DNA of 64,000 nt, from NCBI RefSeq assembly GCF_054482595.1, contig NZ_CM137008.1; one strand, written 5' to 3'. Both the position numbers and the translations under genes were made by a program. Below the pieces are notes generated by a model. It was not told where the DNA came from, did no database searches, and worked only from the letters and a program-made list of their open reading frames with translations. This document shows positions 3,030 to 13,346 of the stretch, piece after piece (position 1 is the stretch's first letter; each line of letters starts with the position of its first letter).

Positions 3030-3875
3030 TTATTTTCCCGCCTCCGGGTGCGTATCAAACGCCGCCATCACCAGCGCTAACTCATCCACGGTTAAGCCAT
3101 GTTTCGCATCATCCACGCCCAGACCAAACTGTTCTTGCATCACAGCATATAATGACGCCACATCCGGTAGATTTCGCTGCTCCACCGCGTGCCCATTTTC
3201 ATAATGGGTAAAATGAAAATTGGTCAGTGTCAGCTTGCCGCCGTCCGGCAAATGGCGGCACATCAGCAAATGATGGCGAAAATGCGACTGCGGCCAGTGC
3301 GCCGACCAGAAATTGCCCATCACATAATCGCTTTGTTGCTGCTCGCAGAGATCAAAACGGTACATCGACTGCCAATGCTGATGATGATTAAACTGCAACA
3401 CCCAATCATCACCCTCCTGCAACAACCGATACTCTCCGTGTGGCGTGGTCTGCACGAGATCGGGAACTAAACGAATCGGCGCGGTTAGCGTCTGCCCACC
3501 GAAACCGACATCAGCAATCCATTTTTCCCCTTCCAGTTCCACCAACAGCAAACGATGGGTGCGCGGCGGTAATGCTGGCGGATTTGATAACACTACCCGC
3601 CCTAACAAGCTGCGAACGTTAAACCCCAGCTCGCGTAACACCCGCTCAAACACGCCATTCTGCTCAAAACAGTAACCGCCACGACGGGCTATCACCAGTT
3701 TCTCTTCCAGCGATTGATCATCAAGCTGTATTTCCCTCGGCAGCAAAACGTCGAGGTTTTCAAACGGAATGGTGCAATTGTGTTTCAGGTGCAATGCACG
3801 AAGCGTATCAATATTGACCGCAGCAGCTCCCGACCAGTTAATACGGGCAAAATAGTGATTCAGAATGGGCGTCAT
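3030..3875 (-). CDS. nhoA: Arylamine N-acetyltransferase (N-hydroxyarylamine O-acetyltransferase)
   Basis: 281-aa ORF; NAT-family sequence; synteny. Confidence 0.85.
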   Translation of the reverse strand: MTPILNHYFARINWSGAAAVNIDTLRALHLKHNCTIPFENLDVLLPREIQLDDQSLEEKLVIARRGGYCFEQNGVFERVLRELGFNVRSLLGRVVLSNPPALPPRTHRLLLVELEGEKWIADVGFGGQTLTAPIRLVPDLVQTTPHGEYRLLQEGDDWVLQFNHHQHWQSMYRFDLCEQQQSDYVMGNFWSAHWPQSHFRHHLLMCRHLPDGGKLTLTNFHFTHYENGHAVEQRNLPDVASLYAVMQEQFGLGVDDAKHGLTVDELALVMAAFDTHPEAGK

Positions 3876-5283: not shown

Positions 5284-5400
5284 CGGCACACCGTGATCTT
5301 TCCCTGGTCCCTGTCCCGGATTGTAGTACCGGTGCCAGTTGTAGTGCAGTTCGGATTCGTCGTCATACTGCTAGCCCGGATGGCGGAGCAGTTGCTCTAG
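5284..5400 (-). pseudogene. Decayed fragment of an Rhs core end (orphan rhs remnant), interrupted by stops
   Basis: Minus-strand translation gives ...QYDDESELHYNWHRYYNPGQG..., resembling the Rhs core terminus [12 protein letters not shown]; stop codons on both sides; no intact downstream ORF. Confidence 0.5.
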
Positions 5401-5442: not shown

Positions 5443-5856
5443 TCAATATCCTAACGCTGGTCTTTTGCCTGTATTAACTGATTTAGCTGGTTTGCTACAT
5501 ATTAATGCCTTCAGATTTTCCCTTTCCTTGTCTGTGATACTGTCACAAACCCTACTAGCCCATTCTACTTCACTCTTCTCCAGGCATTCTATTTTCTTAT
5601 TGCTCATTGTTCTAATGTTTGGTGTTGCATCTCCATTTAATAACATCCATGTTTCATTTTTCTTCATAAAACATCTTCCATTATGTTCAAAGATATTAGG
5701 TGTGAATATATTATCAGAATCCCATGTTACGACTTGCTCGAGGGCTATATTATCTTGATAGTCCATGCCAGCATTATAATAATCACAAGATATAATTATC
5801 ATGGAAATAATTATCATGGAAATAATTATCACTAATATCTTCCCAAGCATTTCCAT
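5443..5856 (-). CDS. Putative Rhs immunity protein, predicted lipoprotein
   Basis: 137-aa ORF whose ATG directly abuts the rhs stop codon; AT-rich; N-terminal hydrophobic segment ending in a lipobox-like IISC with Asp at +2. Confidence 0.55.
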   Translation of the reverse strand: MEMLGKILVIIISMIIISMIIISCDYYNAGMDYQDNIALEQVVTWDSDNIFTPNIFEHNGRCFMKKNETWMLLNGDATPNIRTMSNKKIECLEKSEVEWASRVCDSITDKERENLKALICSKPAKSVNTGKRPALGY

Positions 5857-8800
5857 TTACTTTACCTCTTGAAATTCAAATGGGAATCCAGTGAAAGGAC
5901 CTTTAGGCATAATATATCTTTGATATCCATAAAGCTCACCGAGCACTTGTAGGCTTATAGGCGCATTTGTATTCATAGAGGGGTTGTTAAACCCGCACGC
6001 CTCAAAAATCATGTTCGTTCGGCTAAAACAATTATTTAAAACAGGAAGAGGCCCGAGGTTAATAGTTTTTAGTTTTTTATTAAGGTCTATTGCCTTATTC
6101 ATCATACATTGTTCTTCTTCATCTGTTGTATCTATTATCCAAATCCAGGTATCTCTGCGGGATTGTATCTTTTTAAAATAATCAGAGACAGAGGCTCCCA
6201 TCTCATCCCCAGTTCCCGAACTCATTAATCCATATCGATTTGCCGCCGCAGCATGCCCAAAAGGATTATCAGGAACGGGGCCGTTACCTATTATCATAGT
6301 ACTAAGCCCTAATGGATCAACGTGTTGCACTGGATTCAGCGGATATTGGTACAGATTCCATCCCCCCTTCAGCCCTATCGGGTCCTGAGTGATATACCGC
6401 CCCTGCAACGGATCGTAGTACCGGTTCCGGTTGTAGTACAGCCCCGACTCCTTATCATACTGCTGCCCCGGCAGCCGGTACGGCTGGTGCAGGTGATGCG
6501 GGTTCTCCTCATTAAGCTGGTTGCCCCATTCATCATACTCCGCGCTCCACGCCGTATTGCCGTCTTCACTGATAAGCGCCAGCGGCAGGCCCCGGTGGTC
6601 GCAGTGGTAAAGATGAACTTTTCTCGCCGGTGTGTATTCCGGCTCCATCTGTCTGGCCAGTTGCTCCACCGTCAGCCCGCACTGCGCAAGCCACGCCCGG
6701 CTTTCACTGCTCACGCGGTCTGCCCGGATTTCTTCCTCCAGTCTGTCCAGCAGCCGCACCAGTTCAGCCGGAAATACCACGCCGTGCCCGTCCTCGCTCC
6801 CTTCCTGCTGCATCTTCTCCGCCAGGCTGCGGCGCTGCGCTTTCTCCCGCTCGCCGTTCTCTGTCTCGCCCCGGATGAGCGGCGTGAAGCTTCCCGGCTC
6901 GTATACCGTCTGGATACGTGTGGTGTCAGTCTGCACCGTCGTCAGCCTGTCGCCGTCCCACCCGTACCATGTCTCCTCCGGTTTACGCGACAGCGACATC
7001 CATCCCGTCAGGTCACGCCCGCGACGCCACACCCGTTTCGCCATTCGCCGTCCCAGCGGGTCGTAGAGGTAGCAGCTCTCGACCAGTGGCTCGCCATGCT
7101 GTATCCGCGTGTAGAACACCAGGCGGTGCTGGCTGTCGTAGTGATAGTGGTGGGTGCGCTCGTCGTGCATCCGGATAACCCCTTCCGGGATACGGTCCGT
7201 CTTCTCCGCCAGCCTGCCGTATTCATCGTAGCGGTAGACATAGTGCGCATCTTCCGCGATGCGGTTATCCGGCCACGCCGTGAAGGTGCTGTCCGGGTGC
7301 AGTTCCGGGTCCGGCAGCCGGTTTCCTGCCGGGTCCGTCGCATACGGGATATCGATATCCAGGTTCGCTGCCGTGGTGTGGACGCCCGTCAGCCTTCCCG
7401 TGCCGCTGTAACGGTACTCCCGGCTCTCCTGCGGGCCGCTGATGCGGATTAGCTGTCCGTTGTCGTTCCAGTCGTAGTCATGGTCAAGCTGCGGAAGGTT
7501 CAGGTGCCTGCTCCGGAGCTGGCCGCTGGTATTCCAGGCGGTGGCAAGTTCATATGCCTCCCCGCCGAAGCTGCGGGCCGTCTCACGGTGCAGCCGGTCC
7601 CGCGTGTACTCGACCAGCGGCGTTCCGCCCAGCTTCATCCCCGCAAGATAACCGCTGCCATACGTCAGCCACTCCACCCGCGGCAGGCTGTCCGGCGTGA
7701 CGCGGTTTGCCAGACCCTGTTCGTTGTATGCGTGCTCTGTCTCATGCTGCCACAGCAGTTCCCCCGTCTCCGGGTTATGCACCGTCTGGCGTTCGCCGGC
7801 CAGGCGACCCTTATCATCATAACCGTAATGCACCGCCACCTGATGGCCTTCGCTCAGGTGGCTGATGTCTGTCAGCCAGCCGTGGCCGTCATACTGCCAC
7901 TGCTCTGCCGGTTCACCGTTCACCGTGCGGTGAGTGATACGGTCCGATTCGTCGTAGTGCCAGAGGGTGACAAGTCCCTCATCCTCACTCTGTGTGAGTT
8001 TTCCGGTCAGGTCATAATGATAACGCTGCGTCCGCCCGTCAAAGCCGCCCTGCTGTACCAGGCGGTCCAGCGCATCGTAGCTGAAGTCGCTGTGACTGCC
8101 GTTCTCGTTGGTCAGGCTGATGACACGTCCGGCAGCATCGTACTCCATACTGCGCGTCAGCCCGCCCTGCGTGGTGCTGACCGCCTTTCCCCACGCATCG
8201 TACTGTGTCTCGCTCCGGTTGCCGTCCGGGGTGATAACGGCAGTCAGGTCGCCTGCGGCGTTGTATTCATACCGCGTTTCACGGCCCTGTGCGTCTTTCA
8301 CCGAGGTTAACCGGCCACGGTTGTCATAGCGGCGGTAAAGGCTGATGCCTTCCTCGCGGTGGACCGCCGTCATCTGGCCGAAGCGGTCGTATTCATAGCG
8401 GGTCTGGTAGCCCGAGCAGTCGGTGAACGCCAGCAACTGACCGTAGCGGCTCCACGTCATCTGCCGGGTGCTGCCCGTCGCATCTGTTGTCGTGGCCGGT
8501 AATTCACTGTGCGCATCATCATAGCGGTAGCGTACTGTCTCCCCGCTGCGCGATGTCTCCGTTACCAGCCTGTCCAGTTCATCATATGCCCGGCGGCTCT
8601 CCAGCCCGTCCGGGGACACCACCGCCGTCAGCTGGTTCCCGTCGTTATAGTAAAATTTCGTCTCCCGCCCGTCCGGTGTGGTGATGTCCGTGATATCGCC
8701 GGACACCACATTCAGACCGTACTCTGTCCGCCGTCCCGCCGCGTCCGTCTGCGCCGTGAGCCTTCCTGCCGCGTCATACCCGCTGTGCGTGACGCTGCCA

Positions 8801-10062
8801 TCCGCCAGTTCTTTTTTCACCACCCGTTTCAGCCCGCCTTCACCTTCTGTATGCAGCACCTCACGCCGGTTCAGGCTGTCGGTGACGGTGATGCGGTCCT
8901 GCTCATACTGGTAGCGGTAACTCAGGCCTGCCGGGTTAAGCTGCTCCACCACCCGCCCGGTATCGTCGTAGCGGTAGCGCATCTCCGGCCTTCCCGCATA
9001 ACGGTGCCCCACCATCCGGCCCGGGTGCTGCGCGTCATACGTGAAAGCGCGCACCTGTGTCCCGCTGCGGTCATATACCGCCAGCAGTTCACCGGCTTCC
9101 GTATACGTGTACCGCGCCAGTGGCGCTCCGGGCAGGCTCTCCGGGTATGCCGGGTCGTGCATCAGCCACACCGCCAAAAGGCGGATACCCCTGTCGGGGC
9201 CGTATTCGGTACCGGGCAGTGTGTCGGGGAACGCTGAGGCTGAGAGAGGGCGGGAACGGTCAGAAGAAGATAGCGAAGAGGTGCGGGCCTCTTCCGCACG
9301 CTGCGCCTGCGTGGTCAGCACCAGACGGAACTCCCGCCCGGCACCGTCCGTCACGCCGGTGATTTCCCCGGCCAGGTCACCGGCGGCCTCACGCCGGTAC
9401 GTCAGCGTCCGCCCGAAGCGGTCCGCCATCCCGGTAAGCACCCGGTACGGCGGCAGCGGCGCTGGCAGTACGTCCTCAGCACCCGGCACCCGCTCAGACC
9501 ACCCCAGTATCCACCACGGCCCCTGTGCGCTGTTGGTCGCCAGGTAAAGATGCGGGCTTAACCGGATATCCGGCGGCAGCGACGCCCACAGCCGTGCCAG
9601 CGTATGGCCGTCCGGCTGCGTTGCCTTACCGCCACGCACCAGCCACAGGGACTCGCTGCGGCTGTACACCGCCTCACCCGGCAGCAGCGGCTCAAAGTGA
9701 ATGCTCCGTCCGCCGTTGTCGTTGAGTACCAGTGCATCATCGCGTAGCTGTAAGCGGATATCAGAAGGCGCTTTCCAGCCGGGGCCAAAAATCCCCACCG
9801 GTGCAGGCGTCTTCGTCCGGTAGCTGCTGTAGGTGCGGGAGAGAATGAACGGCAGCGGGCCGGGCAGCGCAAGGTCCGTCTCGCCGGGCAGCACCTTCGC
9901 CCCCAGTAGCGGGTTTACCGGGTTAGAATAGGTGATACCGCCCGGACACACCGAGCACGCCACACCGGTCGGCGCGCCTATCAGTACCCCCGCTGACCCC
10001 TGGACTATCGGACCGCCGTACTGGGTCATATCTCCCTGGCGTGCCGCTGGTTTTCCGCTCAT
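5857..10062 (-). CDS. rhs: Rhs-family polymorphic toxin with N-terminal PAAR-like domain, YD-repeat core and variable C-terminal toxin tip
   Basis: 1401-aa ORF; N-terminus [11 protein letters not shown]...; many YD repeats; core terminus PxxxxDPLGL near 6305 followed by a roughly 148-aa AT-rich tip. Confidence 0.9.
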
Positions 10063-10129: not shown

Positions 10130-12238
10130 TCAGTACTCTCTCATATCCGGCGTATCCTGCTTTTCATCAGGTGTCTTCGGTGGGGATTTCGAGGCTGCAC
10201 AGTTCAAGTTAATCAACAGTGAGTCACCATTAACCTGCTCCTTACCCTGCAAATGAATTTTTGTGCCGTTGAGAAAAATTTGTCCGTCCTTCGTCAGCAC
10301 CAGCCTTGCCTTACCACAGCAGAGCTCCAGATGCTCCCCGGCAGAGTAAATCGCTGTCTGTCCGGTATCATCCTTCTTCGTTTTACCCACGGTGAAGGTG
10401 ACGTTATTTCCGACTTTAACGTCATATCCTTTCCCCACAAGCAGCGATTTATTTACCCCCACCTGCGAGGACTGCATCAGCGCCACCGAGGTGTTCATAA
10501 TGCCACCTACCGTCGTCTGATACGCCACGCCCACGGTCAGCGCACGAACAAGTCCAATCGTTTCCACCTGAACAGAACCCACTTTAATTATCTGGTTACT
10601 GCCCACCGTCTCTATCTGGTTAACACCCACCGTCTGTATCTGATTGTTGGTAACCGCAATCATCTGATTGTTGCCAATGGTTTCAGCATGGTTGTTTATC
10701 ACATCCGTGGTGCGGTTATTCAGCACCTCGGTGTTCATGTTCTTCTGCGCGTGGATGTAGACCTGTTCTTTCCCTGTCGCATCGTCAAACTTCAGTTCAT
10801 TAAACCCGCTGCCCTTATAGGTTTTCGAACGAATGGTCATCTGCGTCTTCGTCCCCGGCAGGCTGCCGGGGGTGCGGTTTTCCTGGTGGTAGGTACGCCC
10901 CATAATAATCGGCTGGTCCGGATCGCCGTTGAGGAAGTCCACAATCACCTCCTGACCCACACGCGGTATCGCCAGGTTGCCAAAGCCGGTGCCTGCCCAC
11001 GCCTGTGCCACACGGATCCAGCATGAACTGTCCTGGTTTGACGGGTTATAGCGGTCCCAGTTAAATTTCACCCGCACGCGGCCATGTTCATCACAGAAGA
11101 TTTCCTCGCCTGCCGGTCCCGTCACGACGGCGCTCTGCGGGCCGTCCACCATCGGTTTCAGCAACGGCTGTGGCCGCCATGTCCGGTCTGCCGGGATTAC
11201 CGCAAAGTGGTTATTCAGCGTGGTACCTGAACCACTGCGTCCCGGCACCGCCTGCGGCTGCTCGCCGTGCAGTTCACTTGCCACCACCTGCCATTCCCGG
11301 TTCAGGTTCGCCTGCGGATGCCCCGTCAGCGCAATTCGCCGTCCCGGCCATATCTCCGGAGAACGGCTTGTTCCGCGCGCCACTTCTGCGTTGTTTCGCC
11401 AGCCATCCATCTGCCAGCGGGCAAAGTTCTGCCCGTGGGCACCCTTGAAACGTCCGGGGTAGTCATACACTTCATACTGTGTGCGCTGGTAATCCTGGTA
11501 CTGGCCTTCCTGATCAAAACGCCCTGCCCAGCCGGGTCGTTTAAAGGTGTAGTCTTTGGTCACCACGGAAGAAGGGCGGATTTGTGCGCTGTAGCGAAAC
11601 TGGCTGATGCATAGGGTGCTCACCTCGGTACGGGTGTTCGGGTTCCAGGGGATCTCAAAGGACTCCGGCAGATAACGCACGGTGTCGCACAGGACCAGGC
11701 TCTGGTCGATACTTTTTTGCGCGTGCTCCTCATAAAAGAAGATGCCTTCCTCCGCCGCCATCCGGCACAGGAAATCGTAATCGGTTTCGCCGTACTGGAC
11801 ACAAAACTCACGGGAAGGATGTGGCTCGCTGAACAGCGGGCTCCACTCGGTAACCCCGTTTTCCTGCAATATCGTGCCGAGGATGCTTTCGATGTCCTCA
11901 TTCTGGAAGATACGGAAGTTCTGGCGCAGCCCTGTGCGCCACAGCGGTGGGCACACCTTCATGCTGTACAGCATCTGGTTTTTGTCGTTCTCCCCCAGTT
12001 CAAACCAGGTCACCATACCTTTCACCCGGCGCTGTACGTCATCGCCCTGCCATACCGTCAGGTAGGCCATTTTGTCCAGCACCTGCGCAAATTCAAGGGA
12101 AAGAAACTGCTGACTGACCAGAGAAAGGTCGAGGGAAAAAAGTGAAGAGAGTGACTGGGAGAGGTGAAAGGAAACCACCGCAAAAGCATCCGGTGGCAGG
12201 CCGTCCACTTCAAGTGTGAAACGTAATCCGGTTGACAT
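10130..12238 (-). CDS. vgrG: Type VI secretion spike protein VgrG
   Basis: ORF 10130..12274; start placed at MSTGLRFTLEVDGLPPDAF with a ggagg SD just upstream; gp27/gp5-like sequence with C-terminal Val/Gly-rich repeats. Confidence 0.85.
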   Translation of the reverse strand: MSTGLRFTLEVDGLPPDAFAVVSFHLSQSLSSLFSLDLSLVSQQFLSLEFAQVLDKMAYLTVWQGDDVQRRVKGMVTWFELGENDKNQMLYSMKVCPPLWRTGLRQNFRIFQNEDIESILGTILQENGVTEWSPLFSEPHPSREFCVQYGETDYDFLCRMAAEEGIFFYEEHAQKSIDQSLVLCDTVRYLPESFEIPWNPNTRTEVSTLCISQFRYSAQIRPSSVVTKDYTFKRPGWAGRFDQEGQYQDYQRTQYEVYDYPGRFKGAHGQNFARWQMDGWRNNAEVARGTSRSPEIWPGRRIALTGHPQANLNREWQVVASELHGEQPQAVPGRSGSGTTLNNHFAVIPADRTWRPQPLLKPMVDGPQSAVVTGPAGEEIFCDEHGRVRVKFNWDRYNPSNQDSSCWIRVAQAWAGTGFGNLAIPRVGQEVIVDFLNGDPDQPIIMGRTYHQENRTPGSLPGTKTQMTIRSKTYKGSGFNELKFDDATGKEQVYIHAQKNMNTEVLNNRTTDVINNHAETIGNNQMIAVTNNQIQTVGVNQIETVGSNQIIKVGSVQVETIGLVRALTVGVAYQTTVGGIMNTSVALMQSSQVGVNKSLLVGKGYDVKVGNNVTFTVGKTKKDDTGQTAIYSAGEHLELCCGKARLVLTKDGQIFLNGTKIHLQGKEQVNGDSLLINLNCAASKSPPKTPDEKQDTPDMREY

Positions 12239-13346
12239 AGCAACCTCCGTGAAAATGAATAATAATCCGCACATATTGCATGTACAACATGTCGGGCGGA
12301 TGAGATAAGCGAGTCGACATCTGGCGTTACCGGGGAATATCAGAAAAATGTCATGGTTATGTGATGATTTAGTCTGGGATTTTACTTCAGAGAAACGGGT
12401 GTCTGTTTAGTCAACAAAATAATCACAAACGCAACGGATGGGTTCTCGACGTTATTCACGACAGGCTCGTACATTACAGCGAGTAATAAAAAACCCGATA
12501 TGCAAAGTCAAACCAATATTCATAATGTCTTTTTATTCACAACAATAAATAATTTAATAACAATCATTGAAATGAATGATGATTTGTATAAGGAATATAC
12601 GCTACCGCCCCACCCTGATAACATGATCTGCACATTGCCATCTTAACGTCGTTAAACACTGGCTTAATAGTGGATATTTCAAATTAGGAATTTATTAAAT
12701 TCACCTGATGAATATCATAAGCAAATAGCATAGAAAATAATGACAACTCCCCCGAGGGGACCATTTCCAAAGCACTGCACCACCACCTGGTGCCCGGATG
12801 ATCTTGCTTCAGTGGTAAGAGTACCTGATTCATTGTTCCCAAAATGGTGTTTTCCCCTGCCCCTCCAATAATGTGCAGCTCTCACGTGATAATCTATTGA
12901 TTAGGTTATATTAAGAATCAATATTTAAAATACATCCATTTTCTTGAATAAATCAACATGTTTATTAATCAATTGCTGTTTTAGCTCTGACTCATCAAGC
13001 TCTCCATATTTGTCCTACAGATAATTGCGAATAAATACAGAGAACGCCATTTATCCTTTTAGCATACCTGCCGGATATTTTTATTTGTATTAATATTAAT
13101 TGCATCTCCAACTCCGAGCATATCCATCATTAAAAAAATTTTGAGATTATAGAATACCTGTGATAACAAGTGAAACATCTGCACAATGTGAATAGTTAGT
13201 TTCTTTTCAGAGGAAATGAAATAGACACGCTGAATGAAAGGGAGAGTGATATAAATTAAAAAACATAACGTGAATTTAATTAATTACGCCCATCATTGTG
13301 GATAAAGTTACTGAATAATAAATAACATAATCTTCTGGTATCCCAC

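Follow-up and report, generated by a model that had tools for sequence, protein, structure and literature searches.

A compact permuted NlpC/P60-fold toxin tip on a VgrG-linked Rhs protein of Escherichia coli, with a predicted lipoprotein as candidate immunity partner

What is the toxin carried at the end of an Rhs protein when no sequence library has a name for it? The rhsE locus of Escherichia coli raises this question. We analysed 64,000 nucleotides of the chromosome (contig NZ_CM137008.1 of NCBI RefSeq assembly GCF_054482595.1), a stretch called here the window, in which an Rhs gene ends in a tip of 148 residues. A preliminary description made from the letters alone had pointed to this tip and placed it in an unrecognised toxin family. 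Here, we argue that the tip has a recognisable fold. Judging from its model, it is almost certainly a papain-like cysteine enzyme of the permuted NlpC/P60 kind. It is placed in the YiiX / TseH / DUF4105(Lnb) / Tox-Act1 branch of this superfamily, and it is a new member of a published kind of toxin, the permuted NlpC/P60 domains of the DUF4105/Tox-Act1/TseH branch that are delivered by type VI secretion systems (T6SS) and can be fused to Rhs proteins. The gene and its two parts are the following.

5857..10062, minus strand: Rhs open reading frame (ORF), 1401 residues, stop codon at 5857-5859
6304..10062, minus strand: Rhs core, residues 1-1253, with an N-terminal DUF6531/PAAR-like region, a shell of YD repeats and the end ...DPLGL
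5860..6303, minus strand: toxin tip, 148 residues (1254-1401, after DPLGL), a compact domain of predicted permuted NlpC/P60 fold

The sequence libraries are silent on the tip. The search of Pfam that the preliminary description had proposed returned no Pfam-A family, even at E<=10; NCBIfam and PADLOC gave none either, and profiles of 7 and of 45 sequences had no meaningful match among PDB sequences. To this extent the word unrecognised was well chosen. The structure prediction and Foldseek search, also proposed there, led to a known fold group. The AlphaFold2 model, computed from the 45-sequence alignment, has a mean predicted local distance difference test score (pLDDT) of 91.2 and a predicted template modelling score (pTM) of 0.86, and shares a papain-like alpha+beta fold with the solved members of the YaeF/YiiX-like group. 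The structure-comparison table gives 10.5 for YiiX (2if6), 10.0 for the Vibrio cholerae T6SS effector TseH (6v98), 9.1 for a YiiX-like cysteine peptidase of Bacillus cereus (3kw0), 7.5 for the Rho-inactivation domain of MARTX, a fatty-acyltransferase (5xn7), 5.0 for PPPDE (2wp7), 4.4 for PLAAT4 (7zot) and ~4-4.6 for various canonical NlpC/P60 peptidoglycan hydrolases. The first Foldseek matches in AFDB50 were Rhs proteins of E. coli and Hafnia that bear this tip; Rhs-associated proteins and proteins labelled 'DUF4105 / Lnb N-terminal periplasmic domain' came next (E 1e-12 to 1e-5). Since the tip appears as a compact, circularly permuted member of the NlpC/P60 group, with its His before its Cys, the assignment to an unrecognised family has to be given up at the level of the fold. 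One might still take the tip for a truly unrecognised toxin with some other chemistry, possibly acting in the cytoplasm. The empty libraries would agree with this, as would the habits of Rhs tips, which most often are nucleases or ADP-ribosyltransferases at work in the cytoplasm (Nicastro et al., PLoS Biol 2026, PMC12994826), but the AlphaFold2 model, the structure matches, the Foldseek results and the lipoprotein homologues described below all contradict it, and we find it scarcely credible.

Which residues would do the chemistry? The preliminary description had named one His and three Cys as the only obvious candidates, and the count is exact. Their codons lie as follows.

6253..6255, minus strand: His17 (Rhs His1270), CAT, predicted catalytic base; invariant in the 45 aligned sequences and in 99% of 152 sequences
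6028..6030, minus strand: Cys92 (Rhs Cys1345), TGT, predicted nucleophile in the motif L-N-N-C-F-S-R-T-N; 100% conserved
6106..6108, minus strand: Cys66 (Rhs C1319), not conserved family-wide; probable disulfide with Cys103
5995..5997, minus strand: Cys103 (Rhs C1356), not conserved family-wide; probable disulfide with Cys66

Conservation points to His17 and Cys92 as the catalytic pair. Only seven residues are invariant across the 45-sequence alignment (N13, G16, H17, G25, G30, R50 and C92), and the consensus motifs of the family are NP[FI]GHxA[IV]A..GxGVxSxG, R[RD], TTPEQ and DNCxxR[TS]N. The assignment by DSSP on the model starts a strand at H17 (E17-22) and a helix at C92 (H92-102); a His on a strand and a Cys at a helix start are what papain-like enzymes have, and His before Cys is the permuted order. 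For a possible third member of a triad the conserved candidates are N13, S28 and D33, whereas TseH and Lnb have a Glu or Asn at His+17. The other two Cys probably form a structural disulfide, given their pattern of occurrence: both positions hold Cys in 17 sequences, one in 3 and neither in 132. These counts are not independent, because many of the 17 are close relatives, and the pair is also found in several distant lineages.

How large is the family? A word-indexed search found only close relatives of the tip, 52-97% identical, in E. coli, Salmonella and metagenomes. We built a profile from seven of them and scored it exhaustively, as a hidden Markov model (HMM), against 1.84 billion cluster representatives; 336 of these reached E<=1e-3, and 134 reached E<=1e-10. 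Among the 151 matches spanning both conserved regions the domain is C-terminal in 135; at least 102 have a strict Rhs-type DPxG junction right before it, and in most of the remainder a variant junction takes that place. The tip family is thus a large set of Rhs/YD polymorphic-toxin tips without a Pfam or NCBIfam model of its own. When the 45 aligned relatives are scanned with Pfam, PF13387 (DUF4105/Lnb_N) appears weakly in 7 (E<=0.1, best 1.8e-6) and in only 2 at E<=1e-3; RTE1 and Peptidase_C97/PPPDE give weak matches in 2 each. The tip occurs together with its immunity gene in 541 of 5,426 complete E. coli genomes (~10%), and relatives are present in Salmonella and Hafnia, which makes the pair a common weapon of gut Enterobacteriaceae. 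Genome annotation calls the two products 'RHS element core protein' and 'hypothetical protein', our literature search found no description of this E. coli tip or of its lipoprotein partner, and none of the tips Rhs-CT1 to CT10 of Ma et al., in the form in which PMC6730261 summarises them, matches it.

The NCBIfam RHS_core equivalog covers residues 1-1253 with 2710 bits (cut-off 2000) and Rhs_assc_core residues 1176-1253; Pfam DUF6531 lies on residues 47-123 (E 5.8e-18), and PAAR_motif matches weakly (E 0.049). The PxxxxDPxGL junction is present at the end of the core, and the tip starts with STM. Composition changes at the same place, the GC content being 0.391 in the tip versus 0.634 in the core and that of third codon positions (GC3) 0.33 versus 0.76. 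In a 300-nt profile GC drops at the junction from ~0.60-0.66 to 0.35-0.39, far beyond local noise, and the immunity ORF downstream of the tip is at 0.34. Hence the sharp AT-richness relative to the core, which the preliminary description had reported, is confirmed. The domain it had delimited at 5860-6304 is real, has 148 residues and a translation that agrees with the residues it quoted; its upper end was one base too far, since 6304 still belongs to the core, as the last base of its closing Leu codon. We conclude that this is a real, exchanged toxin tip of a VgrG-linked T6SS Rhs effector, presumably dependent on T6SS.

In which compartment would such a toxin act? The gene that follows the tip offers the best clue, with an ATG one base after the toxin TAA.

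5443..5856, minus strand: immunity candidate, a predicted lipoprotein precursor of 137 residues with the lipobox I-I-S-C
5785..5787, minus strand: codon of the lipobox Cys24 (predicted lipidated +1 Cys), TGT, followed by GAT for Asp at +2; invariant in 6 of 6 homologues

Five loci whose tips share 53-83% identity with ours came from Salmonella enterica, another NCBI assembly and three contigs of metagenomes or sequencing runs (JGI, ENA, Logan). The gene after the tip is a homologue of the immunity ORF in all five. All six proteins have a signal peptide with a lipobox (IISC, IVSC, LVAC, ITGC or LVSC), an invariant mature N-terminus C-D-Y-Y and four further invariant Cys, and are otherwise 39-82% identical. 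Conserved cysteines that come in pairs typify proteins of the periplasm, and in the Lol sorting of Enterobacteria an Asp at +2 keeps a lipoprotein in the inner membrane. In the model of the immunity protein residues 3-25 form a helix. Pfam gives nothing meaningful for this protein, and its weak matches to NanM/YjhT (E 0.01-0.06) are no better than chance. An immunity protein that is exported and tethered to the membrane implies a toxin acting on the periplasmic side. The export and lipidation signals therefore make it very probable that the tip acts in the periplasm, and they would place the immunity protein, and with it the target of the toxin, at the inner membrane. A periplasmic target is unusual for an Rhs tip, though not unknown.

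Two further observations concern the immunity genes. Within the signal peptide of the lipoprotein (5800-5829, minus strand), the hydrophobic core carries a tandem duplication of a 15-bp unit, ATAATTATTTCCATG, encoding I-I-I-S-M. Strain TUM13936 has one copy and strain 2824 three, so that the length of the signal peptide shifts in steps of five residues. Further out in the tip family, three distant members are followed by ORFs (3372-3857 in locus L020, 2061-2474 in L021 and 3237-3635 in L022) that resemble each other, share a P-Y-[AI]-W-[IL] motif and have, in all three cases, a single N-terminal hydrophobic anchor and a C-terminal Cys pair. They show no significant similarity to the lipoprotein family (HMM E>=0.059; hhalign probability of 0.6%) and seem to be a second immunity family for the tips, this one anchored in the membrane. 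Their N-terminal anchors also speak for a toxin acting in the periplasm, as does the co-occurrence of C66 and C103 in the tip.

What, then, is the substrate? Members of the YiiX/TseH/DUF4105/Tox-Act1 branch act on fatty-acyl linkages. The closest precedent is Tox-Act1 (STox_15), a phospholipase and effector of the Salmonella pathogenicity island 6 (SPI-6) T6SS with a permuted NlpC/P60 core, which is toxic in the periplasm only, loses its activity with H43A or C151A, converts phosphatidylglycerol (PG) and phosphatidylethanolamine (PE) to lysolipids and is neutralised by Imm-Act1, a protein with two transmembrane helices (PMC12994826). It has several features in common with our tip. Both are T6SS-associated antibacterial toxins built on a permuted NlpC/P60 core with His then Cys, their motifs are similar (..G-H.. 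and ..N-N-C-[TF]-[TS]..), and in both the immunity gene lies directly downstream and encodes a membrane-associated product. In the published tree Tox-Act1 is sister to DUF4105, and the supplementary 'Tox-Act1' list is made of Rhs-CT, PAAR-fused, Fil_haemagg and VgrG-adjacent proteins with weak or no Pfam DUF4105/Peptidase_C97 matches (PMC12994826). The make-up of this published 'Tox-Act1 clade' list is the same as that of the tip family.

On these grounds we think it fairly probable that the tip is an acyl hydrolase or transferase acting on membrane phospholipids, delivered to the periplasm by a T6SS Rhs protein and countered by a lipoprotein at the inner membrane. Carried by the VgrG spike, the Rhs cage would enter a nearby Gram-negative cell and release the tip into its periplasm. 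By analogy with Tox-Act1 and TseH, Cys92 would attack the acyl ester of a glycerophospholipid (PE or PG), forming an acyl-thioester that is then resolved by hydrolysis or transfer, and the resulting lysophospholipids and free fatty acids would make the membrane fail. The presumably co-transcribed lipoprotein would shield the producer: exported, lipidated and kept by its Asp at +2 on the periplasmic side of the inner membrane, it would bind the toxin there. Substrate, compartment and dependence on T6SS we infer here; what the sequences and the model show is the Rhs and VgrG setting, the fold, the invariant His/Cys pair on the expected structural elements, the family, and the signals for export and lipidation in the immunity protein.

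Several observations weigh against this proposal. To compare the sequences directly we recovered Tox-Act1 (265 residues, with H43 and C151 as published) through the wild-type form of the C151A primer, which led to a PLSDB record, and built a seven-sequence profile from it and six homologues, 34-60% identical, from plasmids of Klebsiella, Aeromonas, Providencia and Vibrio. In a one-sequence search Tox-Act1 obtains E 0.009-0.07 from the HMMs of the tip family, which is not significant. With hhalign the tip family reaches a probability of 0.3% against the single Tox-Act1 sequence and of 8.7% (P 0.001) against the seven-sequence profile, again not significant. In the latter alignment, colinear across 126 columns, H17 stands opposite H43 and C92 opposite C151, which for its part favours the analogy. 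Nor does PF13387 match the tip itself, even at E<=10. His and Cys are 75 residues apart in the tip; Tox-Act1 and TseH have a spacing of 108 and Lnb one of 99, so that the substrate pocket could differ. The immunity proteins are also of different types, ours being a predicted lipoprotein that has a single cleavable signal and four additional Cys whereas Imm-Act1 is small with two transmembrane helices; the translated ORFs downstream of Tox-Act1 homologues have 63-97 residues, no lipobox and, by eye, two hydrophobic stretches. Finally, NlpC/P60 enzymes include peptidoglycan amidases, which a periplasmic immunity protein would fit equally well. On this reading the tip, like the Tae families among the canonical NlpC/P60 effectors of T6SS, would be a periplasmic peptidoglycan amidase or endopeptidase that cuts stem peptides or cross-links until the cell lyses, unless the lipoprotein blocks it. 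With the fold neighbours in the order given above, we consider this unlikely.

The carriers differ too, the tip being a domain of 148 residues in an Rhs cage whereas Tox-Act1 is stand-alone or PAAR-fused, with ~270-385 residues. The tip shares the structural and catalytic branch of Tox-Act1 and lies outside its sequence family. None of the accessions of our tip-family matches is shared with the supplement of Nicastro et al. QMP79959.1, an E. coli Rhs protein with a DUF4105 tip, is a Tox-Act1 homologue in the text of that work and 'DUF4105b' in its supplementary sheet (PMC12994826).

Might the target be lipoproteins rather than bulk phospholipids? The Pfam family nearest to the tip family by sequence is DUF4105/Lnb_N (PF13387), and several enterobacterial Rhs tips annotated as such match the tip profile at E 1e-36 to 1e-38. 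Lnb is a lipoprotein N-acyltransferase of Bacteroides with five transmembrane helices, which acts on diacyl-lipoproteins through a Cys nucleophile; its putative triad is Asn66-His49-Cys148, the Cys alone having been probed by mutation, and that of TseH is Glu81-His64-Cys172 (PMC11573676). Lnb and the tip have in common their action on the periplasmic side and a Cys nucleophile, both predicted in the case of the tip, but Lnb is a polytopic housekeeping membrane enzyme whereas the tip is a soluble domain of 148 residues at the C-terminus of an Rhs protein, with an immunity partner. One might speculate that the tip applies Lnb-like chemistry to the acylated N-terminal Cys of lipoproteins, by de-N-acylation or aberrant transfer, and so derails Lol trafficking, with the immunity protein as a substrate mimic. 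Lipoproteins have been raised as possible targets of the branch by Nicastro et al. (PMC12994826), and an invariant C-D-Y-Y in proteins otherwise so divergent is unusual for a lipoprotein tether, which is normally variable. This line of thought is entirely inferential, though. Retention at the inner membrane suffices to explain the invariant Asp at +2, conservation nearby may be structural since residues 3-25 are helical in the immunity model, and PE and PG are what the single characterised toxin of this branch breaks down. We therefore hold a lipoprotein target to be distinctly unlikely. As for the sharper statement, that the tip is a lipoprotein-directed enzyme and no bulk phospholipase, that it removes or misplaces the N-acyl chain and poisons Lol sorting, and that the C-D-Y-Y end of the immunity protein is a non-productive substrate mimic, we regard it as very unlikely. 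If true, it would make the tip the first toxin known to target lipoprotein maturation.

The remaining relatives in the branch are more remote. TseH (VCA0285, 6v98, DUF6695) is 6% identical to the tip, which has no Pfam match to DUF6695, and is a stand-alone effector, not an Rhs tip. Proteins of the YiiX/YaeF family (Peptidase_C92; 2if6, 3kw0) are 9-13% identical to the tip, which has no Pfam match to Peptidase_C92 either; they are housekeeping proteins or have no assigned function, and are not polymorphic toxins.

Under the phospholipid reading that we favour, the tip adds a compact, Rhs-encapsulated subfamily with lipoprotein immunity to the recently recognised lipid-targeting permuted NlpC/P60 toxins, and serves as a case of an Rhs tip with an apparently periplasmic, not cytoplasmic, target. 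As a small and well-modelled enzyme it lends itself to deciding the activity of the branch between phospholipid hydrolysis, acyl transfer and action on lipoproteins, and the pair it forms with its immunity protein is suited to probing how immunity at a membrane surface works. Should a mundane reading prove right, the gain would lie mainly in annotation, with family models for at least 336 sequence clusters and for the immunity family.

The search for Tox-Act1 brought up some observations of its own. The gene is unannotated on OX345044.1, a linear 5.4-kb PLSDB record from Salmonella enterica SV10194 ('plasmid: 127'; locus L011). This record has no replicon typing and tox-act1 is published as a chromosomal gene of SPI-6, which suggests a chromosomal contig mislabelled as a plasmid. 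Homologues of Tox-Act1 in the strict sense, 34-60% identical and some of them PAAR-fused, occur in 76 PLSDB records from Aeromonas, Providencia, Proteus, Moellerella and Vibrio, 49 of which are typed as conjugative. An annotated ORF of 63-97 residues, hydrophobic by eye, lies directly downstream in four of the six homologue loci that we viewed (L012-L017). Carried in this way, the lipid-targeting toxin appears to be mobile on plasmids.

What surrounds the Rhs gene in the window? The locus is 100% identical to that of strain XH990 and has the order narZYWV-yddE-nhoA-yddH-pptA, immunity ORF, Rhs, vgrG, then yncH onwards. One more gene of the system belongs here.

10130..12274, minus strand: vgrG, encoding a T6SS spike protein, an ORF of 714 residues that adjoins the Rhs gene upstream

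The 64-kb window, most of it read by collinearity with XH990, holds no T6SS core cluster, and the machinery that fires VgrG and Rhs would thus be encoded elsewhere in the genome.

The interval between the immunity gene and pptA contains, at 5308-5370 on the minus strand, what remains of an Rhs core end (..QYDDESELHYNWHRYYNPGQG..), degenerate and interrupted on either side by stop codons. Such a decayed, orphan piece of Rhs is typical of earlier tip exchanges at this locus. Related traces are found in other genomes. In E. coli 2824 and TUM13936 (L018, L019) the Rhs gene ahead of the tip and immunity genes is annotated as partial or as containing an internal stop, so there the pair persists as an orphan module with no intact effector. 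In Salmonella and metagenome contigs (L003 1035-3628, L004 4355-5872, L005 1-4856) more Rhs fragments flank the tip-immunity pair, with small downstream ORFs of their own and in one case a Tox-WTIP tip; these are arrays of orphan modules, each an Rhs tip with its immunity gene.

The rest of the window, ~12300-64000, is ordinary E. coli core chromosome from ansP to ydbD, as far as the collinearity with XH990 assumed from one matched segment holds. It includes hicAB (with hicA frameshifted in XH990), hokB, ortT and a tnpA/insQ copy of the IS200/IS605 family.

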